Below are positions 1 through 31,058 of a DNA stretch of 64,000 bases, one piece after another. Under the pieces are notes generated by a model. That model saw nothing but the letters and a program-made list of their open reading frames with translations, was not told the origin of the DNA and ran no database searches. The stretch covers positions 4,160,637-4,224,636 of the forward strand of contig JAXGLX010000002.1 in NCBI GenBank assembly GCA_040768985.1, in the 5' to 3' direction. Every line of letters starts with the position of its first letter. The first letter of the stretch is position 1. The position numbers and the translations under genes were made by a program. The DNA is from Acidobacteriota bacterium. GTDB taxonomy: Bacteria; Acidobacteriota; JAAYUB01.

Positions 1-2172
1 GATCGGCAGGGGCGGCTGTGGGTGGGTACCCTGCGCGGGATCAGCGTCCGGGAAGGCGACACGTTTCGCAACCTGGTCCAGGATATCGCCACGTCGCGGC
101 GGACGGTGTACGGTTTCATGGAGGATGCCCACGGGATTGTCTGGGCGGGCACCTCCGCGGGGCTGCTCCGGATCGACGGAGACAAGACCCGCGTCTACAC
201 CGGCGCCGACGGCCTGCCGTGTCCGGAGGTGAACAAGATTGTCCGGGACGACCGCCGGGACTGTCTATGGATCGGCACCTGGGGCGGGGGCGTCATCCGG
301 TACGACGGCCGGACGTTCACCCCGTTCGGCACCCGCGAGGGCCTCGCGTGTCCGTTCGTGACCAGTCTGTGCCTGGACCGGGAGCACAACCTCTGGATCG
401 CCACTCGCGAGGGCGGATTGTCCCGGTTCATGGGCGAGCAGTTCGTGCTCTACGACCGCCGGGACGGCTTGTGCGACGGGTCCATCAACGAGATCCGGCC
501 GGATGGCCGGGGCGGGCTCTGGCTGACATCTCTTGACGGCGGCCTCAGCCATTGGGACGGCCGCGCGTTCGTCCGGTTGGACCCGGGGCCGGGCCTGCCC
601 ACCAACCGGTTGCACCTCGCCCTGGTGGACTCGCGCGGGCGGGCGTGGCTGGGCGCGGATCAGGACGTGCTCTGCGTTGATGGCCGGCGGGTCACCCGGC
701 TGAACCGAAGCGGCCGGCTGCCGGCGGGGCCCATGGCCAGCATGATGGAGGACCGGGACGGCCGGATCTGGGTGGCGATGGCGGGCGGACTGGCCGTGAT
801 CGAGGATCTCGCGGTCCGCCGCGTGTACGGCGCGAACGAAGGTTTGCCGGACACGGACATTCAGGCGCTCCTGCAGGACCGGCGCGGCACCGTCTGGTGC
901 GGCACCCGGAAGGGGCTGGCGGCCATCGGCCGGGACGGTGCCGTTCGGGTGTACACCGAGGCCGACGGACTTCTCCATAACCAGGTGCGGCAGATTTTCC
1001 AGGATTCCCAGAGCCAGTTGTGGTTCGGCTGCCGGGCCGGGCTGATGGTGTACCGGTACGACTACTTCCGGAACATCACCCGGTCGACGGGCCTGGTCAG
1101 CGACGCGATCCGATTCTTTCGCGAGGATTCGATGGGCCGGATCTGGATCGCCACCGACGAGGGGCTCAGCGTCTTCTGGCGGGGCCGGATCGTCAACTAC
1201 ACCGAAGCCAACGGCCTGGTGGGCAAAGCGGTGTTGAGCTGGTACGAGGACACGGAGAAGAACATCTGGATCGGCACCGATCTGGGGCTCAACTGTTTCA
1301 GCGGGGAAGCGCTCCGACGTTACGAGCCGCAGGACGGCCTGGCGGGCGAGGCCGTGTACGAGATTCTACAGGACCGCCAAGGCGGCATCTGGTTGCTCAC
1401 GAACCGCGGACTGGGCCGTTTCAACGGCCAGGCCGTCGAATCGTTCAACGGATTCGCCGGGTTCTTCGGGCAGATCGTCCTGCGGGGGGCGTGGACGCTG
1501 GATGCCGATGGGCAGTTGTGGTTCGGCACCAACCGCGGCGCCTGCCGGCACAATCCCGAAGGCGACATTCCCAACGTGTCACCGCCCATTGTGCATCTCA
1601 CCGCGCTGAAAGCGGACGGCCAGCCGGTCCGGATCGCGAACGGACGGTGCGTGCTGCCGGATTCGGTGCGCACGCTGGAGTTTGAATGGGTGGGACTCAG
1701 CTACCGGGATGAACAGGGAGTCCGATACCGCTACCTGGTGGATGGTCTTTATCCGGACTGGTCCGCGCCCACCCGCGAACATGGTCTCCGAATGACGTTC
1801 CCGCCGCCCGGGATATACACTCTGAAGATCCTGGCCCGCAACCATGCCGGAATCTGGAGTCCCAGGCCGCTGACGGTCAGCGTGGAAGTCCGGGCGCCGT
1901 TCTGGCGGACCGCGCTGTTCCTGTGGATCGCGGGCCTGGTGCTGGCCGTTTCCGCCGGTGTGGCGGTCGTCAGCGCTCGACGCCGCCGGTTCGCGCGGGA
2001 GTCGGCGTGGCGCGAGGAGCGGGAACGGATGGCTGACCAGATCCGGCGCCTGGAAATACAAGCCGCGTCGCCCGCCGCAGCCGGTGCGGCTGGCGCCGAA
2101 GCCGCTCCGGCGGGTGATGGCCAGCCGGTGAACGATCCGGCCGGCCTGAAGCCGTCCGCACCGGATCGCTGA
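1..2172 (+). CDS. 5'-truncated periplasmic sensor-module protein: two-component-regulator propeller (Reg_prop) repeats, then a Y_Y_Y-type beta-sandwich, one TM helix and a short Ala/Pro-rich cytoplasmic tail. No kinase or other output domain
   Basis: Frame 1 is open from nt 1. Repeated W(I/V)GT..GGL.R(Y/F)DG motifs typical of Reg_prop blades (LWIGTWGGGVIRYDG, IWVAMAGGLAVIED, LWFGCRAGLMVYRYD, etc.). A Y_Y_Y-like region (LEFEWVGLSYRDEQGVRYRYLVDGL) is followed by a hydrophobic helix (ALFLWIAGLVLAVSAGVAVV). Only about 75 aa of tail follow before the stop at 2172. Confidence 0.7.
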   Translation, partial: DRQGRLWVGTLRGISVREGDTFRNLVQDIATSRRTVYGFMEDAHGIVWAGTSAGLLRIDGDKTRVYTGADGLPCPEVNKIVRDDRRDCLWIGTWGGGVIRYDGRTFTPFGTREGLACPFVTSLCLDREHNLWIATREGGLSRFMGEQFVLYDRRDGLCDGSINEIRPDGRGGLWLTSLDGGLSHWDGRAFVRLDPGPGLPTNRLHLALVDSRGRAWLGADQDVLCVDGRRVTRLNRSGRLPAGPMASMMEDRDGRIWVAMAGGLAVIEDLAVRRVYGANEGLPDTDIQALLQDRRGTVWCGTRKGLAAIGRDGAVRVYTEADGLLHNQVRQIFQDSQSQLWFGCRAGLMVYRYDYFRNITRSTGLVSDAIRFFREDSMGRIWIATDEGLSVFWRGRIVNYTEANGLVGKAVLSWYEDTEKNIWIGTDLGLNCFSGEALRRYEPQDGLAGEAVYEILQDRQGGIWLLTNRGLGRFNGQAVESFNGFAGFFGQIVLRGAWTLDADGQLWFGTNRGACRHNPEGDIPNVSPPIVHLTALKADGQPVRIANGRCVLPDSVRTLEFEWVGLSYRDEQGVRYRYLVDGLYPDWSAPTREHGLRMTFPPPGIYTLKILARNHAGIWSPRPLTVSVEVRAPFWRTALFLWIAGLVLAVSAGVAVVSARRRRFARESAWREERERMADQIRRLEIQAASPAAAGAAGAEAAPAGDGQPVNDPAGLKPSAPDR

Positions 2173-2184
2173 GCCGGCGGTCAC

Positions 2185-2988
2185 TCACAGTTCAATTGTT
2201 TCCAGCACCTTCTCGTTGTAATTGCCGCCCAGGCAGACGGCGGCGATCCCCTCAATGTTGACACGGACCCCGGCATGCGAATGGCCGCAGAAGACATGGG
2301 TCACCCGCGGATGCCGGCGGATGGCCGCACCGAGGCGGGGGCTGCCCATGAAGGCGTTGCCGAACCGCCAGACGGGATCGGGTTTGCGGACCAGCAATTC
2401 GGGAAAAGGGATGTGGTGGGTGACGACGACCACCGCATTCACCGAGTCCGGCAGACCGGCCAGTTGGGCATCCAGGCGCCGGCAACAGCGGTCAGTGAAC
2501 TCCGGATCCGTCAGCGGCCAACGGATGTAATGCCGGTCCAGCCACTGGAACCGGCCGGGAATCCAACGCTGTCGATACCAGTCGTCGGGGCAGCCCAGTG
2601 ATTCATCCCGGTAAGAGTAATCGTACCAGCCCACGTTGCCGACGACGGCCACGGCACCATCGATGTACGGGGCGGCGTCCAGGTAGTGCACGCCGTGGCG
2701 GGCGCAGACAGCCGGGATGTATTCCTCGTACAGCTGCAGAGAATCGCCGTGGCGTGTCCACAAGTCGTGGTTGCCGGGTGTGTATAGGATCTGCCCGGCA
2801 CAGCCGGCGAGCGACCGGAAGGCGGCGTCCAGGTTTTGTTCGGCGAACGAAATCAGGTCGCCGGCCAGGACCAGCCGCTGGACGCCCTCCCGGGCCAGGC
2901 GGTCGAGGAAGTGAGCCAAGGGGTGGCGCCACAGGCGGATCAGGTCCAGGTGCAGGTCGTTGGTGAGGGTGAGTCGGCAGCGCGTCAT
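2185..2988 (-). CDS. Calcineurin-like metallophosphoesterase
   Basis: GNHD and GHSH motifs (LYTPGNHDLW, FCGHSHAGV), and DLHLD near the N-terminus. The ATG at 2988 (MTRCRLTLTNDLHL) is preferred over the track start at 3021 because a GGGAAGGG RBS lies about 8 nt upstream. Confidence 0.7.
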   Translation of the reverse strand: MTRCRLTLTNDLHLDLIRLWRHPLAHFLDRLAREGVQRLVLAGDLISFAEQNLDAAFRSLAGCAGQILYTPGNHDLWTRHGDSLQLYEEYIPAVCARHGVHYLDAAPYIDGAVAVVGNVGWYDYSYRDESLGCPDDWYRQRWIPGRFQWLDRHYIRWPLTDPEFTDRCCRRLDAQLAGLPDSVNAVVVVTHHIPFPELLVRKPDPVWRFGNAFMGSPRLGAAIRRHPRVTHVFCGHSHAGVRVNIEGIAAVCLGGNYNEKVLETIEL

Positions 2989-3137
2989 GGCCAAACCCTT
3001 CCCGGAGGAGGCCTGCGGCATCTATACCATGCGCGGGACCCGCGCCCAAGCAAAATCGATTGCGGGCGTTCGGGCCTGTGCTACAATGAGGTCAAATTGC
3101 CGGTAGACTTGTATTCAGGACTGTTCAAGGAGGCCAT

Positions 3138-4787
3138 ATGTCGCAGCGCGGGTGCGTTATCGCCCTTCTGTTGGTGCTGGCGCTATGCGTGCCGGTCGAC
3201 GCCGCCGACGAGCGGGCGCGTGAGAAGAATATCTTGACCGTCAAGCCGGGCGTGGTCATGGTGTACTCGCGGATCCAGGTCAAGGTGGGGATCCGGACGA
3301 ACGAGGGCCTGCGGGAGTTTGATCCTCTCGACATGAGCGGATCCGGCTCCGGGTTCATCGTCAACCCGGACGGTTACATCGTCACCAACGGCCACGTGGT
3401 CAAGGAATATCACAGCAAGGAAAACAACGCGCTCAAGTCCCAGGCGCTGGTGCAGATCCTCGAACAGCACGTCTTTCCGGCGTTGGAGCAGCAGAAACGC
3501 GCTCCGTTGACCCAGGAGGAGAAAGTGTCGGTGTTCCAGCAGCTCTCCTCCGCGGCGGTGTTTCAGGTGTCCAAGCAGTTGTTTGTCTTCCTGTCGAACT
3601 GGCAGTACCTGCCCGCCGAGATCAAGCAGTACAGTCCGCCCATCACGCCGGTGGCGGGCAAGACCGAGGGGATCTTCAGCTACGAGGAGGCGGAGTCGGG
3701 CAAGGACATCGCCGTACTCAAAATCGAGTCCGGCAACCTGCCCACGGTGCCGCTGGGCGACTCCGCGGCGGTGTCCCTCCAGGCGGCGGTGTTCCCCGCC
3801 GGCTACCCCGGCGTGGTCAGCCAGCACGATTACCTGAGCCAGTCCTCCATGCTGGAGGCCTCCATCACCTCGGGCCATGTGTCCAGCCTGAAGCTGGACG
3901 TCAAGGGCACGCCGGTGATCCAGTTTGACGCCCCGGTCACGTGGGGCAATTCGGGCGGCCCGGTATTCAACGAACGGGGCGAGGTCATCGGCATCGCCAC
4001 GTTCATCAGCCTGGCCCCCACGGGCGCCCAGAGCGCCATCCCCATCCAGGGCTTCAATTTCGCCGTTCCCATCAATACGGCCAAGGAATTCATCAGCGCC
4101 GCCGGCATCCAGTCGAAGCGCGGGCTGCTCGACGGTCTGTGGCAACAGGCGCTGGACTTCTACTTCGACGAGGACTACGAGGCGGCGGTCGTCAAGTGCG
4201 ACGAGATCCTCCGCCTGATGCCCAACCAGCCGGATGCCAAGCGGATCCAGGTGAAGAGCCAGGAGTGGCTCACCGCCCATCCGCCCACCTTCTTCAGCCG
4301 GTACGGCACGATCCTGGCGGTCGTGGGCGGCGCCCTGCTGCTGGTGGTCATCGTCGGCGCGGTGGTGATCCTGGCGGCGCGCGGCAAGAAAGGCGCCCCG
4401 GCGGCACCGCGGCCGGCCGCCGGCGTCCCGGAGATGAAGGCCACCGTGGTCGACATCCAGGCGCAGCGCCAGCAGGTGGGCAGCTTCGGCCGGGTGGTCT
4501 GCGAGAAAGGTCCCGGCGCCGGCAAGGTGACGGAGATCCCGTCCAAGGGGCTGGTGTTCGGCCGCGACGCGTCCCAGTGCACGGTGGTGGTCCCGGACGA
4601 CCACGTGTCCAAGGTGCACGCGCTGCTCACCCCCAGTCCCAAAGGCCTCCTGCTGGAGGACCGCGGGTCCACGAACGGGACGTTCATCAACGACGTCAAC
4701 AGCCCGCGGGTCCAGCAGAACTTCGTCAAGAGCGGCGACCGGATCATCCTGGGCAGCAAGCAGGCGGCCATCTTCCGGGTGGAGTGA
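3138..4787 (+). CDS. Secreted trypsin-like (S1/DegP-type) serine protease fused via one TM helix to a C-terminal cytoplasmic FHA domain
   Basis: AAGGAGG RBS 5 nt upstream of the ATG. Signal peptide (LLVLALCVPVDAADE). Catalytic His (VTNGHVV), Asp (DIAVLKIE) and Ser (GNSGGPVFN). An approximately 100-aa insertion between His and Asp, and no PDZ domain. TM helix ILAVVGGALLLVVIVGAVVILAA. Canonical FHA signature in the last approximately 95 aa (GRDASQC..SKVHALL...EDRGSTNGTFIND). Confidence 0.8.
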   Translation: MSQRGCVIALLLVLALCVPVDAADERAREKNILTVKPGVVMVYSRIQVKVGIRTNEGLREFDPLDMSGSGSGFIVNPDGYIVTNGHVVKEYHSKENNALKSQALVQILEQHVFPALEQQKRAPLTQEEKVSVFQQLSSAAVFQVSKQLFVFLSNWQYLPAEIKQYSPPITPVAGKTEGIFSYEEAESGKDIAVLKIESGNLPTVPLGDSAAVSLQAAVFPAGYPGVVSQHDYLSQSSMLEASITSGHVSSLKLDVKGTPVIQFDAPVTWGNSGGPVFNERGEVIGIATFISLAPTGAQSAIPIQGFNFAVPINTAKEFISAAGIQSKRGLLDGLWQQALDFYFDEDYEAAVVKCDEILRLMPNQPDAKRIQVKSQEWLTAHPPTFFSRYGTILAVVGGALLLVVIVGAVVILAARGKKGAPAAPRPAAGVPEMKATVVDIQAQRQQVGSFGRVVCEKGPGAGKVTEIPSKGLVFGRDASQCTVVVPDDHVSKVHALLTPSPKGLLLEDRGSTNGTFINDVNSPRVQQNFVKSGDRIILGSKQAAIFRVE

Positions 4788-4820
4788 CCCGGGGCGCGGA
4801 CGCGGCACCGGAGCGGAGCG

Positions 4821-5411
4821 ATGTTGAAATTCTGTGCGCACGGACATCCGATGGAAGAGTGGATGACCGAGTGTCCGTACTGCGCCCGCACCGAAGACGG
4901 CGTGCAGAAACCGCTCGGCAGCTCCACCCCGCCTCCCGTTCCGGCCGCGGGCCCGACCGAACTCGGCCCCGGTTCGCCGCTGCGGGCGACGGTGGTGGAT
5001 GGCTATACGGCGCATTACCGGACGCCGCCGGGCGCGACGGTGGCGGATGGCGTGTCCTTCGACGCGACGCCCACACGGCCGCTCACGCCGCCCCCCGGAC
5101 GCCCGTCCGGCGGTCTCCCCCTGCTGGGCTGGCTGGTGGTCATGAACGGCCCGGCCAAGTTTCAGGACGTGCGTCTCGACCGCGAGCAGGTGGTGATCGG
5201 CTCAGACCCCGGCGCCGGGTTGCGGCTCGATGCGGCGGGGGTGGCGCCGTGCCACGGGCGGGTGGTCAAAGAGCGGGACGGCCTGTACCTCGAGGGGGTG
5301 GACGGAGCCGTGTTCGTCAACAACGGCGCCCGGCCGTCGCCCCGCCATCTGCTGGCGGACGAGGATCTGATCCGCATCGGCAGCGTCTACGTGAAATTCC
5401 GAAAATTGTGA
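4821..5411 (+). CDS. Zinc-ribbon plus FHA-domain protein with a divergent FHA
   Basis: N-terminal C..H..(x10)..CPYC zinc-ribbon-like motif, then a Pro-rich linker. The C-terminal FHA-like fold (VVIGSDPGAGLRLDAAGVAPCHGRVVKERDGLYLEGVDGAVFVNNGAR) lacks the canonical S-T-N-G phospho-threonine-contacting residues. Confidence 0.65.
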   Translation: MLKFCAHGHPMEEWMTECPYCARTEDGVQKPLGSSTPPPVPAAGPTELGPGSPLRATVVDGYTAHYRTPPGATVADGVSFDATPTRPLTPPPGRPSGGLPLLGWLVVMNGPAKFQDVRLDREQVVIGSDPGAGLRLDAAGVAPCHGRVVKERDGLYLEGVDGAVFVNNGARPSPRHLLADEDLIRIGSVYVKFRKL

Positions 5412-5424
5412 TCGGGGGCGTCTC

Positions 5425-7542
5425 ATGATCGGCCAAGTCATCGACCACTATAAGATCCTTGAAAAAATCGGCCAGGGCGGCATGGGCACGGTCTTCAAGG
5501 CGGTGGACATCAACCTCGACCGTATCGTCGCCATCAAGGTCCTGTCGAAGGAGCTGTCCCAGGAGGCCAGCCTGATCCAGCGGTTCCTCGCGGAGGCCAA
5601 GACCCAGGCCCAGCTCAACCACCCCAACGTGTGCACCCTCTACAATTTTTTCCGCCATCAGGACCAGTTGTACATGGTGATGGAATACATCGAGGGGATG
5701 AACCTGGAGCAGATGATCCGCCAGCGGGGAGCGATCCCCTTCCACGAAGCCGTGCCGCTTTTCCAGCAGGCGCTGTTCGGCCTGAGCCAGGCCCATCGGA
5801 TGGGCATCCTGCACCGGGACATCAAGCCGTCGAACATGATCGTGAACCGGCAGGGCATCGTCAAGGTCATGGACTTCGGCATCGCCCGGGTGATGGGCCA
5901 GTCGCGGCTCACCCAGACCGGCCTGCAGGTGGGCACCCTGTACTACATGTCGCCGGAGCAGATCCAGGGGAAGGAGACCGACTTCCGGTGCGACATCTAC
6001 GCGCTGGGCATCACGCTCTTCGAACTGCTCACCGGGACGGTGCCGTTCCGGGGGAGCACCGATTTCGAGATCATGCAGGCCCACGTGCGGACGCCGCCGC
6101 CCGCGCCCTCCAAAGTGCTGCCGCAGTTGCCTAAGGTGTTCGACCGGGTGGTCCTGCACGCCCTGGAAAAGGACCCGCGCGCCCGCTACCAGACCGTCGA
6201 GGATTTCTCGCAGGCGCTGGGCGCGGCGCTGCAGGAGGCCCTCCGCACGGCGCCGCCACCCCGCGCCACCGCCGCCTATGCCGCCACGGGCGCGGCGCCG
6301 CTGCGTCCGGCGGGGACACCGCCCCCGCCGCCGGGCACCCAGGCGTACGCTTCCGGAACGCAAGCCTGTCCGCCGGGCACCCAGGCCTACCCCGCCGGGA
6401 CGCAGGCGTATGCCGGGGGCACCCAGGCGTACCCGTCCGGCACCCAGGGCGTCCAGATGCCCGGCGCCACCGTTTTTGACTCACGGCCGGGTACCGGATA
6501 CGCCGCCGCGCGGCCGGACGTCGCCAAAAAGAAAATGCTGATCATCGGCGGCATTGCCGCCGCCGGATTGATCCTCGTGACGCTGACGATCGTGGTGCTG
6601 GCGGTGTTGCTCAAGCCGTCGCCCAGGACGCCGACCGCCGCGACCCCGGTGGCCGGCGGCGGCTCCAGCGGCACCCAGGCCCCGCCGGTGGCGCCCCCCG
6701 CGTCCCTGCCGGCCGCCAGCCCGTCATCGAGCCAGCCGGCCGGCACGCTCACGCTCCCCGTGCTCCCCGGTGGCGCGACGCAGCCGGACAAGGGGCGGAA
6801 AGATTCCAAGCCGCAGCCGGCGCCGCCGACTCCGCCGCCGGCGGAGGAGCCGCCCGATTCCGGCAAATGGGCAACCAAGGGCGATCATTCCGGATCGGGC
6901 GGACAAGCGCCCGTGGAAGATCCGCTGCAGGCGTTGTCCACCCAGGCCTACCAGGCGTATTCCGAGGGACGATTCATCGAACCGCCCGGGAACAACGTGC
7001 TGCAACTCACCGGGGAGATCCTCCGGCGCGATCCCGGCCACGCGTATGCCCTGCAGCTGCAGCAGGACGCCGTCTCCGTGGTCCACGGCCAGTTGCAGTC
7101 GCAGATCGACTCGGGCGATCTGGCGTCCGCCAAGCGCCTCTGCCGGCTGCTGATGCAGTTTTTTCCCGGTAACGGCGATTACCGGCAACTGATGAGCAAC
7201 CTGGAGAACGCGGAGCAGCAGGCCGCCGCCATGAGCGAGGCGCAGACGTTCCTCGTGGGCCACGACCACAGCGGCGACTTCACGCTGTTCTGCGTCGGCT
7301 ACCTGTCCATCTTCCCCGACCGGGTGGTCTATCGAACGATCCGCTCCATCGACGGCCGCACGGATGACTTCGAGGTGCCGCGCTCGGCCATCAAGGAATT
7401 CAAGACCAACCGGTTGCCCATCGGCATGTACCGGGCGTTCCATATCAAGCTCACGAACGGAAACAATTTCAATTTTGCCCACATCGATCAGAACGGCAAC
7501 GACATCGGCCCCGAGGCGGTGGTGTCGGCGTACGGCTATTGA
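5425..7542 (+). CDS. Receptor-type Hanks Ser/Thr protein kinase: cytoplasmic kinase domain, six G-T-Q-A-Y tandem repeats, one TM helix, and an extracytoplasmic Pro-rich region plus a helical/TPR-like and unknown C-terminal domain
   Basis: Glycine loop GQGGMGTVFKA, VAIK lysine, HRDIKPSNMI catalytic loop, DFGIAR, SPEQ. Repeats PGTQAYASGTQACPPGTQAYPAGTQAYAGGTQAYPSGTQG at aa 303-342. TM helix LIIGGIAAAGLILVTLTIVVLAVLL. Confidence 0.85.
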   Translation: MIGQVIDHYKILEKIGQGGMGTVFKAVDINLDRIVAIKVLSKELSQEASLIQRFLAEAKTQAQLNHPNVCTLYNFFRHQDQLYMVMEYIEGMNLEQMIRQRGAIPFHEAVPLFQQALFGLSQAHRMGILHRDIKPSNMIVNRQGIVKVMDFGIARVMGQSRLTQTGLQVGTLYYMSPEQIQGKETDFRCDIYALGITLFELLTGTVPFRGSTDFEIMQAHVRTPPPAPSKVLPQLPKVFDRVVLHALEKDPRARYQTVEDFSQALGAALQEALRTAPPPRATAAYAATGAAPLRPAGTPPPPPGTQAYASGTQACPPGTQAYPAGTQAYAGGTQAYPSGTQGVQMPGATVFDSRPGTGYAAARPDVAKKKMLIIGGIAAAGLILVTLTIVVLAVLLKPSPRTPTAATPVAGGGSSGTQAPPVAPPASLPAASPSSSQPAGTLTLPVLPGGATQPDKGRKDSKPQPAPPTPPPAEEPPDSGKWATKGDHSGSGGQAPVEDPLQALSTQAYQAYSEGRFIEPPGNNVLQLTGEILRRDPGHAYALQLQQDAVSVVHGQLQSQIDSGDLASAKRLCRLLMQFFPGNGDYRQLMSNLENAEQQAAAMSEAQTFLVGHDHSGDFTLFCVGYLSIFPDRVVYRTIRSIDGRTDDFEVPRSAIKEFKTNRLPIGMYRAFHIKLTNGNNFNFAHIDQNGNDIGPEAVVSAYGY
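6331..6451 (+). repeat. In-frame tandem 15-nt coding repeats (ggcacccaggcgtac-like) encoding six G-T-Q-A-Y units in the kinase juxtamembrane linker
   Basis: Repetition visible at both the DNA and protein level, with no frame disruption. Confidence 0.75.
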
Positions 7543-7629: not shown

Positions 7630-9138
7630 ATGAAGCGCAGAACCGTATGGACGACTGTCGGCTCGATCCTCCTGGCGGCGGCTCTGCTCGCGATCCAGAT
7701 CCCGGCCGCCGACTGCACCATGGTGGGCGCCACCGGGCGCGCCACCCGCGACGGCGTGACCATCCTGGGCAAGAACCGCGATTACCCCGTCAACTCCGGC
7801 CAGATCCTCCACTTTCAGCCGGACGGGGAACACCCCGCGGGCGCCACGACGGCGATGCAGTTCATCACCATCGCGGCCGCTCGCCAGACCTGGCAGCTGC
7901 TCGGTTTCAAATCCATGGACGAGCGGAACCGGGACGACCGGCTGTGGCGCTGGGGTGTGGGGATGGGCATGAACCGCCACCAGGTGAGCGTGGCCAACAA
8001 CGACGGCAACACCTGGGACACCTTCGACGGGCCGGCCCTCCACGACAACGACATCACCCGCCTGATCCTGGAGCGCTGCCGCACCGCCCGGGAGGCGGTG
8101 GACCTGGTGGACGAGCTCATCGCCCGCCATCACAGCCGGGTCCCCGAAATCTACACCGTCGCCGATCCCGCCGAGATCTGGATCATCGAGACCACCGGCA
8201 ACCGCTGGGCGGCCGTCCGCGTGACTGACGGCGTCTGCGTGCGGGCCAACCGGTTCGAGATCACCGACCCCGACCTGCCCGACGATTCGGACCGGTTCCG
8301 GCTGCGCCGCCGCGAGCTCATCGAGCACGCCCGCGCCCGGGGGCAGTACCGCGAGGAAAACGGGCGGTTCAGCTTCCGGCTCTCGTACAGCAGGGACTAT
8401 CACGGCCCGGACAACACCCATTACAACGAGATGCGCTACCGCCGGGGCATGGAGCGGATGCGGCTCATCGAGGGGCGGGTCACGGTGGAGGGGGTCGCCG
8501 CCGTGCTCCGGGATCACTTCGAGGACTGGACGTTCGACACCGCCGACGGACGCGCCATCCGGCCGCACACGCCGGGCGCCGACCCCCACTGCGCGATGAC
8601 CGGCTCCCTGCTGGACGGGGCCCCGGTGCGCACCATCTGTTACGGCGGCACCGTGGGTTCGATGATCGCCGTTTCCCAACCCGGCGCGGCCGCCGGCTTG
8701 GGCGGCACCCTGTGGGCTTGCCTGCACCTGCCTTGCCTCAACGCGTACGTCCCGTTCTTCCCGGCGCTGGCTAACCGGCTTCCGGCGGAACTGACCCGCG
8801 CGGGCGGCGCGTACGAGCAGGAGTCGCTGTGGTGGCGTCTGGCCGCCGTGTCGCGGAACCTGGAGGCGCGCTGGGCGGAATCGGGCCAGGCGATCAGCCG
8901 GATCCGCGCCCACTGGGCCAAGCTGGAACGAAAGGAGCTGAAGGAGTGGCGGGAAATCCGCCGGCGCGCCGACGCGCTGGCGCGGCAAGGCAAGGCGGAC
9001 AAGGCCCGGCGGCTGCTCGCCGACTTTAACGCCCGGTGCGTCCGGCGCCTGAGCCGGGGAGCGGACCAGGTGGCGCGCTGGGTGCCCGGCTTCGACGCCG
9101 CGGCTCCGCCACCGGCGTTTTTCGAGCGGCGGTACTAA
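7630..9138 (+). CDS. Secreted Ntn-hydrolase, peptidase C69-like (dipeptidase family)
   Basis: Signal peptide, then a mature N-terminus ...AADCTMVGATGRATRDGVTILGKNRDYP. This matches the C69 pattern CT..(V/L)G.....DGS....ARN.D with an N-terminal nucleophile Cys. Length is about 500 aa. Confidence 0.5.
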   Translation: MKRRTVWTTVGSILLAAALLAIQIPAADCTMVGATGRATRDGVTILGKNRDYPVNSGQILHFQPDGEHPAGATTAMQFITIAAARQTWQLLGFKSMDERNRDDRLWRWGVGMGMNRHQVSVANNDGNTWDTFDGPALHDNDITRLILERCRTAREAVDLVDELIARHHSRVPEIYTVADPAEIWIIETTGNRWAAVRVTDGVCVRANRFEITDPDLPDDSDRFRLRRRELIEHARARGQYREENGRFSFRLSYSRDYHGPDNTHYNEMRYRRGMERMRLIEGRVTVEGVAAVLRDHFEDWTFDTADGRAIRPHTPGADPHCAMTGSLLDGAPVRTICYGGTVGSMIAVSQPGAAAGLGGTLWACLHLPCLNAYVPFFPALANRLPAELTRAGGAYEQESLWWRLAAVSRNLEARWAESGQAISRIRAHWAKLERKELKEWREIRRRADALARQGKADKARRLLADFNARCVRRLSRGADQVARWVPGFDAAAPPPAFFERRY

Positions 9139-10871
9139 TCGGCCGGCCCGGTCCCGGCATCATCCCCACTGAACGGGAAGGCGAGCACCAGCATCCGGCC
9201 GTCGGTGACCAGGTCGTCGCCGGTGGCGTTCCTGGCGGCGCGCGGAAGGTCCGGCCGCTCCAGCCAGCAGACGCCCCGGGGCAGCTCCGTGAACATGAGA
9301 TCGGCGGCGATCTTGTCCCGTTCCCGGTCGATGTGGGGATCGATCTTGTGGTACCAGGACAGGCCGGCCTTCTCCGCCCCGATGCCCACGTCGTGGGTGG
9401 CCGCGGCCAGCCAGGCCGTTTCGCCGCTGACAGGTTCCGGCAGCTTCCAGATCCGGACATGGTGCCGCTTGGCGAAGGTGTTGAGCTGTTTCTGAAACAC
9501 CAGGTCGGGCGGCCGCCCGCCCATCAGGAACGTGGCCACCGGCGCCGTCGAGTAACCCTTCTGTCGCAGGACGGCGAAAAACGTCTTGGCGCCGGAGACC
9601 ATCCCCGTTTTTTCCGCCGGAGTCCAGCCCGCGGCTTCGAAGCTCTGCTGCAATTGTTCGGCGGTTCCGAACAGCGCGATGTTGACGCAGTCGCCGGGAC
9701 GGCCGTCGGCGGACTCGGTGCGGGCGGGGCCGTCGCGGAGCTGCGCGGCGGCCGCGTCGTCGAGCATCAGCTCCGGCCAGGGCGTGACCCCGGCGGGCGG
9801 CTTGAAACGGGCGGGGAGCTGGACCTGGACGGTGAGCTCGGTGCCGGCGGGGTAGTCGATTTCCCGATGATACGTGCGGCCGAAGGCGTACATGGCGCTG
9901 TCGAAGGCGTAGCCCACCGCCGGGTACAGCTTGCCGAGCATGTGGAATCCCATTGAGATGCGGCTGGCGGTGCTGTGCGGGTAGGCGATGCCGATGATCA
10001 GACCATCGCGGACCGTCTCGCGCGCGTTATCCACCGACAGCAGCCGGGTCGTCAGGCCCAGGTGCGAGCCGTCCGGCAGGATCAGGTCGCCCAGATCCAG
10101 CATGAGATTGGCCCGGTCGTAGGCGTCGCGGCACTTCTGGGTGCGCAGCACGGTCCCGCGGATGCGGGTGCCGGCGCTGACCACGGTCTGTCCGTTCACC
10201 GTCACCGGCGCGCAGATGACGCCTTCGACCAGGTCGCCGGCGCGCGACCGGGCGCTGCCGACGGCCGAGGTCAGCCGGATGTCCAGGTTGGTCCCGATGG
10301 GGATGCCGGCTTCCAACAGGGCGCGGAGCCGCGCCATGTCGCCGGCGGCGCTCGCGGCTTCGAGCTGCGCCACCTGCTCCGCCAGGCGCTGGGCGATGGT
10401 GTTGGTCTCGCGACCTTCCGCCCCGTTTTCCAACAGCAGGTCCTGGATGGTCTCGTACGGCGCGTACCCCTCGTAATCCAGCGGCGTGTTCCCGAACACG
10501 TCCCGGCAGTTGGGGTCCGCGCCATGGCGCAGCAGATGCTCCATGACCTCGATACCGCGCTCCTGCTCGGCCCGGCGACCGGCGGTGCTCGCGGTGATCA
10601 CCGCCCAGTGCAGGACGTTGCGGCCCAGGTCGTCCCGTTCATCGACCGTGGCGTCGCGGTCCAGGAGCGAGTCCGCGCGGTTCAGGCGGAGCTTGATTTC
10701 CGCCGGCTTGACCGCGCGGGCGGCGGCGGTCAGCTCCGCCAGCACCGAAGTGGGCGGGGGGAGAGTGTCCTTGCCGCCGGCAACTGTCAGCATCAGCGCC
10801 AGCCAGAGGCAGGCGAGAGCCGGCCCGCGCCGCGGCCGGGAAAGCGCCGACAAAATAATGACGTGTCGCAT
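9135..10871 (-). CDS. Secreted ankyrin-repeat protein with an LssY-like C-terminal domain
   Basis: GGAAGGTG RBS upstream of the ATG at 10871. Signal/TM LACLWLALMLTVAG. At least two ankyrin repeats (DLGRNVLHWAV...LLRHGADPNCRDVFGNTPLDY). The C-terminal 150 aa (CVNIALFGTAEQLQQSFEAAGW...TFAKRHHVRIWKLP...) resemble the LssY_C family. Confidence 0.45.
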   Translation of the reverse strand: MRHVIILSALSRPRRGPALACLWLALMLTVAGGKDTLPPPTSVLAELTAAARAVKPAEIKLRLNRADSLLDRDATVDERDDLGRNVLHWAVITASTAGRRAEQERGIEVMEHLLRHGADPNCRDVFGNTPLDYEGYAPYETIQDLLLENGAEGRETNTIAQRLAEQVAQLEAASAAGDMARLRALLEAGIPIGTNLDIRLTSAVGSARSRAGDLVEGVICAPVTVNGQTVVSAGTRIRGTVLRTQKCRDAYDRANLMLDLGDLILPDGSHLGLTTRLLSVDNARETVRDGLIIGIAYPHSTASRISMGFHMLGKLYPAVGYAFDSAMYAFGRTYHREIDYPAGTELTVQVQLPARFKPPAGVTPWPELMLDDAAAAQLRDGPARTESADGRPGDCVNIALFGTAEQLQQSFEAAGWTPAEKTGMVSGAKTFFAVLRQKGYSTAPVATFLMGGRPPDLVFQKQLNTFAKRHHVRIWKLPEPVSGETAWLAAATHDVGIGAEKAGLSWYHKIDPHIDRERDKIAADLMFTELPRGVCWLERPDLPRAARNATGDDLVTDGRMLVLAFPFSGDDAGTGPAD

Positions 10872-11515: not shown

Positions 11516-12274
11516 ATGGGCGGACACCCGGCAGGCTGGATGGGGCCCGGGCCCCGTTGGCTGGGAGTCGTACTGATCGTCGCCGCCGTCGCGGTCGGCG
11601 CCGCGAGCGCCGCCGAGGTGACGGGCGAAGCCCGGGTGGGTTTTTATTCCCGCTATTTCTGGCGGGGCCAGCTGCTGAGCGAGGGCGTCGTGCTGCAGCC
11701 CGAGGCGTCGGTCGACGTGTCCGGGTGGTATGCCGGCGTCTGGGCGAACCTCGAGCCCGCGAGCGGCGATACCAACGAAATCGATTTCATGTTCGGCCGG
11801 GCGTGGGCGTGGCGGGGACTGCAACTGGAAGCCGGTTACATCATCTATTGGATCGCGAATTACTCGTCCACCCAGGAAGTGTTTGTCAGCGTAGGCCGGG
11901 ATGGGTGGGTGTCGCCCAAGGTGACGGTCTACTACGATTTCGACGAGGGGGACGGCGCCTTCGTGCAGGGCACGCTGGAACGCGTCTGGCCTCTGTCTCA
12001 TGGCGTTGAACTGGCGACGGGCGCCAACGTGGGCTTCAACATCCAGCACAAGGTCATGGGGCCCGGTGCGGACGCCGAGGCGTTTACCCAGTTCTACAAC
12101 CTGGAGCTCTACTCCGCCCTGTCGGTGCCCCTGAACGAGCGGTTCAGCTTGGGCGGCCAGATCGGGTATTCAATCCCGTTGACGGAAGTGAGCAAGGCGG
12201 CGTTGCGCGGCATCAACTGGGACGGCGAGGCGGATGTGCTGTGGGGCGGCGTGACGCTGACCTGCAGTTTTTAG
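11516..12274 (+). CDS. Outer-membrane beta-barrel protein
   Basis: Signal peptide (WLGVVLIVAAVAVGAASAAEV). Alternating amphipathic beta-strands rich in Y/W/G. C-terminal residue Phe (…GGVTLTCSF), typical of an OMP C-terminal signature. Start ambiguous (11516 or 11540). Confidence 0.55.
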   Translation: MGGHPAGWMGPGPRWLGVVLIVAAVAVGAASAAEVTGEARVGFYSRYFWRGQLLSEGVVLQPEASVDVSGWYAGVWANLEPASGDTNEIDFMFGRAWAWRGLQLEAGYIIYWIANYSSTQEVFVSVGRDGWVSPKVTVYYDFDEGDGAFVQGTLERVWPLSHGVELATGANVGFNIQHKVMGPGADAEAFTQFYNLELYSALSVPLNERFSLGGQIGYSIPLTEVSKAALRGINWDGEADVLWGGVTLTCSF

Positions 12275-12284
12275 CCCGCGGCGT

Positions 12285-14045
12285 GTGACGCAGCCGGAGC
12301 CGGTGGTAGAATGTAAGCCGGTCCGGATCGCCATCGGCCTGATCCAGACGGAGACATGCATCGTGCACATTGAGAATGTTCTGGGGCGCAAACCCGTCGC
12401 GCTGGCCTTGGCGGTGCTGCTGGCGGCCCTCTACCTGATCCACGCGGGCACTTCCAGCATCTGGGATTCCAACGAGGCGTTTTACGTCGAGACGCCCCGC
12501 GAGATGATGGAGCACGGCACCCACCTCGTACCCACCTTCAACTACCAGCCCCGCCTCAACAAGCCGCCGCTGGCCTACTGGCTGGTGATCATCGCGTACC
12601 GCCTGGGCGGCGTGAGCGTATGGTCGCAGCGGATGGTCATCGCCGCTTTCGCCCTGGCGACGCTGCTGGTGGTCTGGCAACTGGCGTTCCGACTGACCGC
12701 CAGCCGGACGGCCGCCTGGGCCGCCGCTGCCATCACGGCCCTGACTCCACGGATCTTTGTCATGGGCCGACGGAGCGTCATCGACATGGTGCTGTTGTTT
12801 TCCATCACGGCCACGATCTACTTTTTCCACCGCTACCTTGAGGAGCGCCGCACCCGCGATCTGGTCTGGGTGGGCATCTGTCTCGGCCTGGGTTTCATGG
12901 ACAAGGGGCCGGTGGCGGTGGCCCTGCCCCTGATCATCGCCGCCGTGTACCTGGTCTGGCGCCGCGAATGGCCGCGGGCGCCCTGGCGCGCCGTCGTCCT
13001 GGCCGCGGGCGCCTTCGCGCTGATCGCTCTGCCCTGGTACGTCGGCCTGGCCCGCACGCTGAGTTTCGATACAATCTACCGCCTGCTGGTGGTGGAGAAT
13101 TTCGGCCGCTTCACCGTCGAGGATTTCGGACCGTCGCGGGGGCCGTTCTATTACCTGCCCATCTTCCTGGCCGATTTCGCGCCGTGGAGCCTGCTGTTCG
13201 TGGCGGGACTGGCGTTGTGGCGTCGCCACTGGCCCCAGCTCAAGGAGCAGGACAGATCCCGGCTCATGCTGCTCCTGATCTGGATCGCCGCGCCGATCCT
13301 GTTTTTCAGCCTGTCCAAAAACAAGCAGGAGTACTACATCCTGCCGTCCTACCCGGCGGCGGCGATCGCGCTGGCGTGGTTGGGCCAGCGCCTGGCCGGG
13401 GCCGTCAAGCCGCAGGGATTGGCCAAATGGGCGCTCCGGGCGGCGTTTCTGTTCGGCGTGGGCATCATCGCGCTGTCGTACGTGGTGGGCCGGCAGATCC
13501 TCGACGACCACGTGCTGCTCACCATCGCCCTGCTGATCATGACCGGCATCATGGTGCTCGGTTGGATCTGGGCGGGCGGCCGCCGGTGGCGGGCGGCCCT
13601 GGCCTTGCCGATTGTCGGGGTGTACGTGTCCTGCCTGTTTCTGGCGTACGAGGTAATCCCGGCCCTGGAGAAATTCCGGCAGGTGCCCCAACTGGCCGCC
13701 ATGATCAACGAGCGCGCCCGGCCCGACGATTATGTGGCGTATTTTGCGACGGCCCTGCCCTCGCTCTGCTATTACACCCGCCGGCCCATTCTGGAACTGT
13801 TCTACGACGGCGAGATCTACAATTTCTTTCAGCGCCGCGAGACGATCTATTGCCTGATGCGGAAAGACAAACTGGCGGTGCTGGACCGGGCGGGGATTCC
13901 GTACCAGGTTCTGGCGGAACGGCCGTTCCTGTCGATCCGGGCCCGCCGGCTGGGCAACATGATCCCCGCCATGTACGCCAATCCGCTGTGCCTGGTGACC
14001 AACCAGCCCGCCGGAGCCGCGCCAGCCACCGCCGCCACTCCATGA
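12285..14045 (+). CDS. ArnT/PMT-family (GT39/GT83-like) membrane glycosyltransferase, undecaprenyl- or dolichyl-phosphate-sugar dependent
   Basis: N-terminal signature WDSNEAFYVETPREMMEHGTHLVPTFNYQPRLNKPPLAYW, then more than 10 predicted TM helices. The track start at 12285 is GTG; an alternative GTG lies at 12363. Confidence 0.75.
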   Translation: MTQPEPVVECKPVRIAIGLIQTETCIVHIENVLGRKPVALALAVLLAALYLIHAGTSSIWDSNEAFYVETPREMMEHGTHLVPTFNYQPRLNKPPLAYWLVIIAYRLGGVSVWSQRMVIAAFALATLLVVWQLAFRLTASRTAAWAAAAITALTPRIFVMGRRSVIDMVLLFSITATIYFFHRYLEERRTRDLVWVGICLGLGFMDKGPVAVALPLIIAAVYLVWRREWPRAPWRAVVLAAGAFALIALPWYVGLARTLSFDTIYRLLVVENFGRFTVEDFGPSRGPFYYLPIFLADFAPWSLLFVAGLALWRRHWPQLKEQDRSRLMLLLIWIAAPILFFSLSKNKQEYYILPSYPAAAIALAWLGQRLAGAVKPQGLAKWALRAAFLFGVGIIALSYVVGRQILDDHVLLTIALLIMTGIMVLGWIWAGGRRWRAALALPIVGVYVSCLFLAYEVIPALEKFRQVPQLAAMINERARPDDYVAYFATALPSLCYYTRRPILELFYDGEIYNFFQRRETIYCLMRKDKLAVLDRAGIPYQVLAERPFLSIRARRLGNMIPAMYANPLCLVTNQPAGAAPATAATP

Positions 14046-14090
14046 CAATTCGCGCGCAGACGCCGTCGCCGCGCCGGCCGCCGCGGACGG

Positions 14091-14702
14091 TCATTCACCG
14101 GCCGCGCCATCCGCGCGGAGGCGCAGGGCGCGGCGGTAATCGGCGGGCGTGTTGACGTTGAACAGCGCCCGGGTCCAGAACGGATCGGCGCCCACGTCGA
14201 TGATGCGGATCGGCACGGCGTCCCAAAAACTGATCATCCGGTGCCGCCCCTGTTCGATGGCCCGCTGGACGGCGGGCAGGCAGCCGCGCCGGTAGACGCC
14301 GAACAGCGGGTGGGCGCCGTCGGCGGCGCGCAGCACCGTCGCCTCCGCGCCGGCGGCCAGCCGCCAGAGCCGTCGGATGGCTTCCGGGCCGATGAAGGGC
14401 ATGTCCGCCGCGACCACCAGGCCGGCCGGCGCGGTCATCGCCTCCAGGCCCGTCCGCAATCCACCCAACGGACCGATGGGGCGCTCTTCGCGGATGAGTC
14501 GCACCCCGGGAAGCTCCGGTGGCGGGATGGCGTCGGGCAAACCCACGATCCAGGTTTCGGCCACGGTGCGGGTCAGGACAGCGGCGATGCGAGTCAGCAG
14601 GGTGCCCTCGTCCCACGGCAGACACAGCTTGCTGCGGCCCATGCGCCGGCTGACGCCTCCGGCCAGCACCAGTCCGGCGGCGGGCAACCGCTGGCCGTTC
14701 AT
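14091..14702 (-). CDS. mobA: Molybdenum cofactor guanylyltransferase MobA
   Basis: LVLAGGVSRRMG nucleotide-binding motif. The internal ATG (MNGQRLPAAG) gives a 4-nt ATGA overlap with fdhD. The upstream 94 codons of the track ORF are an Arg-rich artefact. Confidence 0.75.
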   Translation of the reverse strand: MNGQRLPAAGLVLAGGVSRRMGRSKLCLPWDEGTLLTRIAAVLTRTVAETWIVGLPDAIPPPELPGVRLIREERPIGPLGGLRTGLEAMTAPAGLVVAADMPFIGPEAIRRLWRLAAGAEATVLRAADGAHPLFGVYRRGCLPAVQRAIEQGRHRMISFWDAVPIRIIDVGADPFWTRALFNVNTPADYRRALRLRADGAAGE

Positions 14703-15511
14703 GACGGGCGGACCCGGTTCGGGTGGGTGTACACGTTGCACCGCTCCGCGCGGGCGAATCCCACCAGGGTGACGCCGTGGGCCTCGGCGATCTGGACGGC
14801 GCCGCTGGTGGGCGCCGACCGGGACACGAGCAGCGGGATTCCGGCGCGGATGGTCTTCATGACGATGTCGCTGCTCAGCCGGCCGGTGCTCACGAGCATG
14901 GCGTCGTCGCCGACGGGCCAGCGATTCCGGAGGGCGTGGCCGATGACCTTGTCTGCCGCGTTGTGCCGCCCGATGTCGTCGCAAATCCGCCGGAAATCCC
15001 CCGCCTGCCAGAGCCCGGCGGTGTGCACGCAGCCGGTGTCGCGGAACAGCGGCGAACTGCCGACCAGCCGCCCCACCGCGGCCAGGATCTCGGCGACCGG
15101 GTGGGTGGCCGCCGTGTGGAGCACCGGGAAGCAGGCGGACCAGAGGGGCGACACGCGCGACACGCTCCGTCCGCAGCCGGTGGTGAACGTGCGGACGGCG
15201 TCCGGGGTTTCCATCCGGGCCGGACCGGCCAGGGTGACGGAGACGGCGTGCAGGCGGGGGTTGACCGTGACTTCCCGGACGGTGGCCGGATCATCGAAGT
15301 AGCACTCGCAATATAAAAAGCCGAGCGCCAGCTCCTCGAGTTCCGCCGGCAGGGCCATCAGGCTGGCCGCCTCCGCGCCGTTGACCCAGATACTCACCCG
15401 CGCTTCCTCGACCAGCGGGTCACGCAGCACTTCAACGCCTTTGGCCTGATATCGGATAATCTCGCGCTCGTCCAATGGTGCGGACCTCCACGTGAATGGT
15501 AGCATCGCCAC
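14699..15511 (-). CDS. fdhD: Formate dehydrogenase accessory sulfurtransferase FdhD
   Basis: GRHNAADK motif and full-length FdhD-like sequence. The track start is GTG at 15511; an ATG lies 2 codons in. Confidence 0.8.
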   Translation of the reverse strand: MAMLPFTWRSAPLDEREIIRYQAKGVEVLRDPLVEEARVSIWVNGAEAASLMALPAELEELALGFLYCECYFDDPATVREVTVNPRLHAVSVTLAGPARMETPDAVRTFTTGCGRSVSRVSPLWSACFPVLHTAATHPVAEILAAVGRLVGSSPLFRDTGCVHTAGLWQAGDFRRICDDIGRHNAADKVIGHALRNRWPVGDDAMLVSTGRLSSDIVMKTIRAGIPLLVSRSAPTSGAVQIAEAHGVTLVGFARAERCNVYTHPNRVRPS

Positions 15512-30385: not shown

Positions 30386-30413
30386 CGGTTCATCACGCCG
30401 GACTGTGCGGCGG

Positions 30414-31058
30414 TCAGTATTTCAGCCCGGTCAGCAGTCGGATGTAGCCGCGCATATAATACCATGCCCGAAAATCGGCGAACCGGTAATCGGCGAGAAT
30501 GGTGCGCCAGTCGCGGGCGATGAAATCCCGGGCCGGCTCGCATTCGAACCGTTGGAACAGCTGCCGCGCCAGGGGATTGAAGGTGGCCAGGTCGCGTTCG
30601 TTCCAGTCGAGGATGCACAGGCAGCTGTCCTCGGCCAAAAACTCGCCGGCGTTCTGGATGACCAGAATGCGCTGGTATTGTTCGAGTCCGTGCAGGACAA
30701 AGGAAATCAGGACCCGGTCGAAACGCCCGGCGAGGTCAAGCGGACCCTCGATGCGCCGGTCCAGCAGTTCCAGGTTGGGAAATTTCGCGGCCCGTCGCCG
30801 GAAACGGTCCTGCATCTCCGGGCCGATCTCGACGCCGACGATCCGGCCCGCGGGTCCGGTCCGCCGGGCCATCAGGGCGGCCAACCGGCCGGTTCCCGCG
30901 CCCAGGTCGAGGATCCGCTCGCCGGGCCGGATGGCCAGGTCGTCCATCACCCGCTGCAGGAAACGACGGTAGTAGCCGGCGCAGGCCAGGTCCAGCAACC
31001 GGTCGTAATGGCGGGCCGCGAAGCCGGTGAGTTCAATTTTGGGTTTTCGCGTCACCAT
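30414..31058 (-). CDS. Class I SAM-dependent methyltransferase
   Basis: Motif I ILDLGAGTGRLAALMA. The internal ATG at 31058 is used because the track start (TTG at 31112) overlaps tRNA-Ala. Confidence 0.65.
   Translation of the reverse strand: MVTRKPKIELTGFAARHYDRLLDLACAGYYRRFLQRVMDDLAIRPGERILDLGAGTGRLAALMARRTGPAGRIVGVEIGPEMQDRFRRRAAKFPNLELLDRRIEGPLDLAGRFDRVLISFVLHGLEQYQRILVIQNAGEFLAEDSCLCILDWNERDLATFNPLARQLFQRFECEPARDFIARDWRTILADYRFADFRAWYYMRGYIRLLTGLKY

Follow-up and report, generated by a model that had tools for sequence, protein, structure and literature searches.

A widespread bacterial gene cassette linking a Hanks-type receptor kinase to an HtrA-like protease that is predicted to be periplasmic and to carry an FHA domain in the cytoplasm

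Background

Can a protease that works outside the cytoplasmic membrane be coupled to threonine phosphorylation inside it? Among the major routes by which bacteria monitor their envelope are regulated periplasmic proteolysis (DegS/HtrA) and Hanks-kinase/FHA signalling, and the two have been studied separately. Three adjacent genes in the genome of an Acidobacteriota bacterium raise the question of whether these routes can meet. They lie in a 64,000-nucleotide stretch of contig JAXGLX010000002.1 (GenBank assembly GCA_040768985.1, positions 4,160,637 to 4,224,636 of the forward strand; hereafter the window, GC content about 67%), to which all coordinates below refer unless another locus is named. 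Gene 1 (3138..4787, +, 549 aa) encodes a signal peptide, an HtrA-like S1 protease, a helical bundle, a transmembrane (TM) helix, a disordered linker and an FHA domain; gene 2 (4821..5411, +, 196 aa) encodes a protein without a TM helix that consists of a zinc ribbon, a linker with threonine motifs and a degenerate FHA-like domain; and gene 3 (5425..7542, +, 705 aa) encodes a PknB-like Hanks Ser/Thr receptor kinase. An earlier reading of this DNA (hereafter the original prediction) had described the three genes as a tightly spaced, phospho-dependent membrane module. The open reading frame (ORF) coordinates agree with its layout of three co-directional genes separated by gaps of 33 nt (genes 1 and 2) and 13 nt (genes 2 and 3). 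An AGGAGG Shine-Dalgarno sequence precedes the ATG of gene 1, exact-sequence look-ups assigned the genes to metagenome-assembled genomes of uncultured Acidobacteriota and returned the identical trio on several independent contigs, and promoter and terminator scans gave nothing informative on the operon boundaries of the trio.

Results

The fusion protein and a Hanks kinase are linked in at least five phyla

We scanned one genome per species (n = 185,579) and found the protease-TM-FHA fusion in 397 species genomes, including Acidobacteriota, Geobacter and other Desulfobacterota, Aquificota, Thermodesulfobacteriota, and Gemmatimonadota. A HMMER search of 1.84 billion cluster representatives recovered 367 clusters at 50% identity with E-values up to 1e-30. 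The best 120 database matches all combined Trypsin_2 with FHA and were nearly all about 510-610 aa long, apart from a few truncated fragments; their sources included Acidobacteriota, Geobacteraceae, Eisenbacteria, Gemmatimonadota, Bryobacteraceae, and Hydrogenobacter, and their annotation read only 'trypsin-like peptidase' or 'serine protease Do'. The architecture is thus neither rare nor unique to this locus and belongs to a widespread family that has already been annotated automatically.

For gene linkage, we sampled 80 loci (77 informative) and searched their six-frame ORFs with the proteins of the window. A Hanks kinase was encoded on the same strand within 6 kb in 72 of the 77 informative loci, so the pairing on which the original prediction had staked its module extends to five or more phyla, among which the order of the genes is shuffled. 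Nearly all loci with enough room also carried a second small FHA protein, for which our tally of 61/77 is too low because overlapping ORFs were undercounted. Genes for PP2C phosphatases (PF13672/PF00481) were present in 55 of the 77 loci, among them 37 of the 44 main Terriglobia/Bryobacterales loci, all six from Geobacter, and all four from Gemmatimonadota. The order of the genes is protease-FHA, zinc-ribbon FHA, PP2C, and kinase (at times followed by a second kinase) in Terriglobia/Bryobacterales; protease-FHA, kinase, a lipoprotein of about 175 aa, zinc-ribbon FHA, and PP2C in Geobacter, Aquificota, and other deltaproteobacteria; protease-FHA, kinase, zinc-ribbon FHA, and PP2C in Thermodesulfobacteriota; and kinase, PP2C, FHA, and protease-FHA in Gemmatimonadota. 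Because the linkage survives such rearrangement across at least five phyla, it provides strong evidence for a functional four-gene module. All-against-all clustering of the neighbourhood ORFs revealed no other conserved neighbour beyond this cassette and the clade-specific lipoprotein, and led us to reject cell-wall genes (as in mycobacteria) and SPFH/flotillin genes as further members.

The window and its closest relatives (loci L005-L010) carry the cassette without PP2C, and no PP2C gene was detected anywhere in the 64 kb. The original prediction had noted that both PP2C and PASTA domains were missing. For the window this holds, since Pfam found no PASTA domain and the match to the PASTA kinase model NF033483 is confined to the kinase domain. 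It does not hold for the family, in which most lineages encode PP2C. As judged from these gene neighbourhoods, the cassette of the window is a reduced three-gene form, and the loss of PP2C is specific to its clade.

The lipoprotein (about 165-200 aa; loci L011-L019, L027, and L030, e.g., L012 12849-13409) has a lipobox and two conserved cysteines, with no Pfam match; in the cassettes of Geobacter, Aquificota, and related lineages, its gene separates that of the kinase from that of the zinc-ribbon FHA protein. The kinases of the Geobacter and Aquificota cassettes expose only 77-117 aa outside the membrane, and the lipoprotein may act as a separate sensor or as a substrate of the protease.

Several loci depart from these arrangements. 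Eight Bryobacterales loci (L032, L033, L038, L040, L043, L045, L063, and L067) encode two tandem receptor kinases downstream of PP2C; in L032, PP2C and the first kinase share one open frame (12021-14996), either as a fusion or as an effect of sequencing or ORF calling. In the Acidobacteriota locus L024, an SPFH/Band_7 protein that ends in a zinc ribbon (3189-4196) and an extra double-zinc-ribbon FHA protein are encoded between the protease-FHA and zinc-ribbon FHA genes. Locus L028 (JAMOVR010000319.1), binned as Candidatus Heimdallarchaeota, carries a bacterial-type cassette of protease-FHA, kinase, and lipoprotein, and is probably a mis-binned bacterial contig.

A predicted periplasmic protease with a cytoplasmic phosphothreonine reader

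Gene 1 begins with a signal peptide or signal anchor by hydropathy (aa 1-23, MSQRGCVIALLLVLALCVPVDA, with a putative cleavage site before AD; 3138..3206, +), and a basic and hydrophobic N-terminal segment was found in 20 of 20 aligned homologues. The S1 protease domain follows (aa 39-322; 3252..4103, +) and was delimited by Pfam, alignments, an AlphaFold2 model, and Foldseek. Trypsin_2 matches aa 70-286 (E = 6e-25, 89 bits, cut-off 27.6), and the catalytic triad is H86/D190/S272, with the serine in GNSGGP. Neither D190 nor S272 varies across 96 homologues, and H86 is kept in at least 90% of them. The protease thus appears active and catalytically competent by sequence, as the original prediction had proposed, and its further statement that a PDZ domain is missing was borne out by Pfam, which returned no PDZ match. 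Foldseek searches with the protease domain placed HtrA1, DegS, Deg1, DegQ, and MucD first (E of about 1e-16, TM-scores of 0.75-0.82 to the target). The NCBIfam HtrA/DegP/DegS models scored at most 99 bits, below cut-offs of at least 400 (99 versus 416). Two features are family-wide: a helical insertion directly behind the catalytic histidine (aa 93-137), and a periplasmic three-helix, TPR-like bundle in the position of PDZ (aa 330-380; 4125..4277, +; modelled helices 330-343, 347-360, and 365-380), in which W335, P365, and D366 are conserved in alignments.

A single TM helix (aa ~393-415; 4314..4382, +; hydropathy and AlphaFold2) is followed by RGKKG on the cytoplasmic side, and its flanks carry charges of +4 on the C side versus +1 on the N side. 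Our topology calls combine hydropathy, the positive-inside rule, and the modelled helix. The signal-like N-terminus, the single later TM helix, and the flank charges together place the protease outside and the FHA domain inside. The AlphaFold2 model, built with 96 homologues, has a predicted local distance difference test score (pLDDT) of 90.1 and contains an HtrA-like fold, a long helix at 385-415, and an FHA sandwich at 452-548. The linker of about 30 aa between TM helix and FHA domain (aa 417-447) is disordered (pLDDT < 50) and variable in length.

The C-terminal FHA domain (aa 452-549; 4491..4784, +; Pfam and alignments) was matched by Pfam at aa 473-539 (E = 6e-14, 52.7 bits, cut-off 20.7) and bears the motifs G475-R476, S491-x-x-H494, and T512-N513-G-T515. 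In the 20- and 96-member alignments, conservation is complete or at least 90% at G475, R476, S491, H494, N513, and T515. Its nearest solved relative is the FHA domain of Rv1747 (6cah, E = 3e-7), to which it aligns cleanly. The fused domain therefore carries what looks by sequence like the fully canonical phosphothreonine-binding set, and binding of phosphothreonine is predicted. The original prediction of one C-terminal membrane crossing that ends in a canonical cytoplasmic FHA domain accordingly agrees with hydropathy, flank charge, model, and residue conservation alike. The FhaB/FipA model (NF049868, positions 15-136 of 158) also matched gene 1 at aa 401-521, with E = 6.9e-15 and 55.4 bits against a cut-off of 125. 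The TagH model gave a weak match (E = 2.5e-4).

The zinc-ribbon partner has a degenerate FHA domain

The N-terminus of gene 2 resembles a zinc ribbon (Cx(1-4)H...CxxC), and the four-ligand pattern is present in 65 of the 68 members of its family. The Pfam FHA match is weak (E = 4e-4, 21.1 bits, cut-off 20.7). At the key FHA positions, the gene 2 proteins of the window, L005, and L006 have G-S and A-x-x-H and have lost the TNG loop, while that of L008 has G-T, A-x-x-H, and GGG where TNG is expected. In most family members the arginine of the Gly-Arg motif is replaced by Ser, Thr, Ala, or Gln. Searches for a solved structure gave no PDB match even at E-values up to 1, and the OdhI/GarA model did not match. 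The original prediction of a zinc-ribbon FHA protein thus stands for the zinc ribbon; the FHA domain is non-canonical throughout the family and degenerates further in the clade of the window. Because the fused FHA domain of gene 1 is canonical while that of gene 2 is degenerate, the former is the credible phosphothreonine reader, and gene 2 looks from its residues more like a substrate or adaptor than a reader.

The receptor kinase carries a candidate sensor domain

Gene 3 contains all catalytic motifs of a Hanks kinase (Pkinase at aa 9-257, E = 4.5e-59, 200 bits, cut-off 31.7), namely the G-loop, VAIK, HRDIKPSN, DFG, and the activation loop at aa 16, 35, 130, 150, and 163, respectively. The activation loop is PknB-like (L-T-Q-T-G, hence TQT). 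NF033483 covers the kinase domain only (positions 7-301; 353 bits, below its cut-off of 450). A cytoplasmic juxtamembrane linker of 115 aa leads to a TM helix (aa ~379-398; 6559..6618, +; hydropathy) with KKK on the cytoplasmic side, and 306 aa lie outside (6619..7539, +), which upholds the earlier description of a receptor kinase with a cytoplasmic catalytic domain and a large ectodomain. This ectodomain comprises a Pro/Ala/Ser-rich stalk of about 100 aa, a TPR-like helical region (aa ~501-603), and a C-terminal PH/PTB-like domain (aa 607-705; 7243-7539, +), for which a high-confidence prediction shows a beta-sandwich of seven strands with a C-terminal helix as its cap. The C-terminal domain of about 100 aa has no Pfam match and shows the signature HDHxG...C.G...DGRxDxF...FH...NF. 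It also ends Bryobacterales kinases, behind other ectodomains; since the same domain terminates kinases that differ upstream of it, it has the look of a bacterial sensor domain for the extracytoplasmic side that has not been described before. A single-query search gave few relatives of the ectodomain, for which a profile built from the locus sequences was needed.

Threonine motifs recur in the cytoplasmic linkers

The motif ATVxD, which was defined post hoc, has four copies in the trio (0.03 expected), every one in a predicted cytoplasmic linker. These are KATVVD in the disordered linker of gene 1 (T436; 4437..4454, +), which sits about 16 residues upstream of the fused FHA domain and is a candidate for a phospho-acceptor or an FHA ligand; RATVVD (T57) and GATVAD (T73) in the linker of gene 2 (4983..5048, +); and GATVFD (T349) in the juxtamembrane linker of gene 3 (6463..6480, +). 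The other ORFs of the window contain no copy in 52,845 aa, and none of 20,000 shuffles reached four. In homologues 61-72% identical to gene 1, the linker motif is kept as KATV[VM][DE] or KATTVD while the rest of the linker varies.

Across the gene 2 family, two to three motifs of the form [K/R/A/E]-T-[V/R/K/E/Q]-[V/I/L]-x were found in the linkers of every phylum (e.g., KTRLE and RKTVLL; GATVIS; GATRIF and GKTVVF; EKTSVF and EKTQIF). Motifs of the type T-[VRKEQS]-[VIL] are present in 60 of 64 members, at a mean of 2.05 per linker versus 0.30 in shuffles. In sequence, they resemble the ETTSVF phospho-motif of GarA/OdhI (PMC8546545).

The juxtamembrane linker of gene 3 also contains a 21-nt tandem repeat (6328..6448, +; Tandem Repeats Finder, period 21, 5.8 copies) encoding (P/A/S)GTQA(Y/C) units, which share a T-Q context with the activation loop. 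Copy number varies between near-identical strains, with six TQ in the window and L005 and seven in L006, and suggests repeat expansion and contraction within a signalling linker. The repeats are limited to L005 and L006, the closest relatives of the window; L008 has GATVAY instead and others have none. We therefore rejected GTQAY, the docking site named in the original prediction, as a general FHA docking site. The conserved candidates are of the T-[V/R/K/E/Q]-[V/I/L] type and reside chiefly in the zinc-ribbon protein.

Other genes of the window

Divergent from gene 1 lies a metallophosphoesterase gene (2185..3021, -), which adjoins the cassette in L005, L006, L009, and L010, all members of the clade without PP2C. 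We considered this enzyme as a stand-in for the missing phosphatase and rejected it, because it is TIGR03729/GpdQ-like rather than PPP-type and lacks the GDxHG/GDxVDRG/GNHE signature; replacement of PP2C by it is unsupported and its membership of the module doubtful. Further neighbours encode a Reg_prop/Y_Y_Y beta-propeller protein with a TM helix and no kinase output domain, truncated at the start of the window (22-2172, +), a C69-family dipeptidase with a signal peptide (7630-9138, +), and an ankyrin and LssY_C protein (9135-10871, -). These three probably lie outside the module, since their synteny extends only to the closest relatives (L005, L006, and L008). Elsewhere in the window, an ORF of 689 aa (28355-30421, -) encodes a second Hanks-type kinase with a C-terminal catalytic domain (aa ~423-688) and weak TPR-like matches upstream; searches with the proteins of the window detected no FHA gene next to it. 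In the genome to which the window belongs, a flotillin-like Band_7 gene (L001 2617-4149) is also found, about 6 kb upstream of the cassette.

Discussion

Relation to known systems

The closest counterpart is the Mycobacterium tuberculosis cluster Rv0014c-Rv0020c (fhaA-fhaB(fipA)-pstP-...-pknA-pknB), which likewise combines two FHA proteins, a PP2C, and PknB-type receptor kinases. The kinase catalytic domain of gene 3 is PknB-like with a TQT activation loop, and FhaB/FipA sits in the membrane with its C-terminal FHA domain on the cytoplasmic side, similar to the TM-linker-FHA layout of gene 1. In the present cassette, however, the membrane FHA protein bears a 390-aa periplasmic HtrA-like protease, for which the actinobacterial system has no equivalent; rodA/pbpA neighbours and PASTA domains are missing; a zinc ribbon replaces the N-domain of FhaA; and PP2C is absent in the clade of the window. 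The key functional paper on FipA (PMC2797604) has been retracted.

Gene 1 shares the protease fold and triad of HtrA/DegP/DegS (MEROPS S1C) and, like DegS, is periplasmic and membrane-anchored, but it differs in its three-helix bundle instead of PDZ, its C-terminal rather than N-terminal TM helix, its cytoplasmic FHA tail, and the helical insertion after the catalytic histidine. Members of the gene 2 family are small and soluble like GarA/OdhI, with a C-terminal FHA domain behind N-terminal threonine motifs (xTx[VIL][F/L/D], compare ETTSVF); unlike GarA/OdhI, they have an N-terminal zinc ribbon, two to three threonine motifs, and an FHA domain that mostly lacks the phosphate-binding arginine. 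The PpkA-PppA-Fha1/TagH pathway of type VI secretion (the T6SS), with its TagQRST lipoproteins, also unites a membrane-spanning Hanks kinase with a PP2C and an FHA protein to place an envelope-spanning machine under the control of phosphothreonine docking (PMC3953482, PMC6213207), and the Geobacter and Aquificota cassettes include a small lipoprotein as well. There, the FHA domain is not fused to a protease, and the present loci contain no T6SS genes.

In the searchable literature, outside which most subscription journals lie, the only mention we found of an FHA fusion to a trypsin or HtrA domain is the FHA-FHA-Trypsin protein NP_811686.1 of Bacteroides thetaiotaomicron, a single occurrence in a 2008 survey without functional analysis (PMC2605481). 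Its domain order is the opposite, with two N-terminal FHA domains, and the survey describes neither a TM or topology analysis nor a linkage to kinases. The original prediction knew of no characterised example and, within the same literature, neither do we; the cassette appears to be uncharacterised and is a variant of the kinase/PP2C/FHA signalling cassette with an unprecedented effector.

Proposed recruitment of the protease by its FHA tail

Comparative genomics lends good support to the predicted coupling, by way of the FHA domain, between a periplasmic protease and a Hanks kinase. For its mechanism, we give about even weight to a phospho-dependent recruitment or clustering of the protease at the active kinase through its FHA tail. 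Here we infer who phosphorylates whom, the docking of the FHA domain, the substrates, and the consequence for proteolysis. Once activated through an ectodomain on a flexible tether, the kinase would autophosphorylate and would also phosphorylate threonine motifs in disordered cytoplasmic linkers, in every lineage those of the zinc-ribbon protein and, in the clade of the window, also its own juxtamembrane linker (GTQAY, GATVFD) and the linker of the protease (KATVVD). The FHA tail of gene 1 would dock on these phosphothreonines and thereby bring the HtrA-like protease to the complex of the active kinase, by recruitment or clustering. At this site it could cleave nearby periplasmic targets, for which an obvious candidate is the 100-aa stalk and ectodomain of the kinase itself, and in other lineages PP2C would reverse the marks. 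Tethering or clustering is more plausible than a conformational relay, because the TM-FHA and kinase linkers are disordered and the protease linker varies in length. There is precedent for this: autophosphorylated disordered segments of PknG recruit the FHA proteins GarA/OdhI (PMC8546545), and control of envelope machines by phosphothreonine-FHA docking is established for the T6SS (PMC3953482, PMC6213207).

Several observations weigh against recruitment as set out here. Without PP2C in the cluster or the window, reversibility in this clade is left unexplained, and the FHA domain of gene 2 is degenerate in the same clade. The ATVxD motif was chosen after the fact. A threonine motif occurs in 25 of 79 kinase linkers and 22 of 96 protease linkers and is thus clade-specific, and the kinases of Geobacter and Aquificota have short linkers with zero to two threonines. 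Since these motifs are clade-specific and some linkers are short, the docking site is not the same everywhere. Finally, sequence does not reveal which way information flows.

Direction of signalling and alternative explanations

An inside-out direction is plausible. The full version of it, in which cytoplasmic threonine phosphorylation by kinase and PP2C sets where and when the periplasmic HtrA-like protease acts across the inner membrane via phosphothreonine-FHA recruitment or clustering, is one that we advance tentatively and hold with less confidence than recruitment as such. One possible outcome would be a feedback in which the ectodomain of the active kinase is itself shed.

The opposite direction is a less likely alternative, in which the HtrA-like domain would act as a DegS-like sensor of unfolded or specific periplasmic proteins, and the tethered FHA domain would scaffold or gate the kinase, for instance by binding a phosphothreonine of the activation loop or by holding the adaptor, so that the protease-FHA protein serves as a co-receptor regulating kinase output. 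The stress sensor DegS is indeed among the structurally closest proteins, FHA docking on kinase activation loops is known from PknB-GarA (as cited in PMC6213207), and the Geobacter and Aquificota kinases, with their 77-117 aa outside the membrane, would need another sensing component; the conserved linkage fits this direction equally. Yet gene 1 lacks PDZ, the peptide-sensing element of DegS, and a disordered TM-FHA linker of variable length cannot relay a conformational signal. The kinase of the window, moreover, has a large folded ectodomain of its own, and the strictly conserved triad suggests that proteolysis itself is the output.

Somewhat less probable again is a phospho-switch within the protease, whereby the kinase would mark T436 and the adjacent FHA domain would bind it either within the molecule, which would close as GarA does, or in another protomer, giving head-to-tail oligomers. 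This would switch how the HtrA-like protease oligomerises, with kinase and adaptor acting only upstream. Retention of KATV[VM][DE] in an otherwise variable linker, so close upstream of the FHA domain, would fit such a switch, for which GarA/OdhI provide an intramolecular precedent (Nott et al. 2009, as cited in PMC8546545). With the motif in only 22 of the 96 protease linkers, it is no general mechanism of the family, and it amounts to a sub-variant of recruitment by the FHA tail rather than an exclusive alternative.

That the genes are mere neighbours, or that the kinase is a PD-T4-6-like anti-phage system uncoupled from the protease, is very improbable: the kinase does match the PADLOC models PD-T4-6 and mad6 strongly and the protease RT-Protease and LmuA weakly, but these matches are confined to generic catalytic domains and PknB scores just as high on that kinase region (353 bits), the parts are without exception signalling-type proteins of the membrane or periplasm, no defence island or mobile elements were seen around the trio, and the linkage is kept in at least five phyla despite shuffled order.

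Conclusions

The cassette physically joins the two routes of envelope monitoring, with a protease outside and a phosphothreonine reader inside, linked to a kinase, an adaptor, and usually a phosphatase. Because it is compact (three to four genes), its phospho-motifs are identifiable, and at least one carrier genome is not labelled a metagenome-assembled genome (Hydrogenobacter sp. RSW1, L014), the hypothesis can be tested directly. Its carriers include environmentally important and poorly studied phyla (Acidobacteriota, Gemmatimonadota, Desulfobacterota, and Aquificota). Inside-out signalling, if true, would represent a regulated-proteolysis pathway under cytoplasmic command that is conserved in several phyla. 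More generally, if the coupling is real, these bacteria would possess a conserved means of steering extracytoplasmic proteolysis by cytoplasmic phosphorylation, or of feeding a kinase from a protease-sensor.

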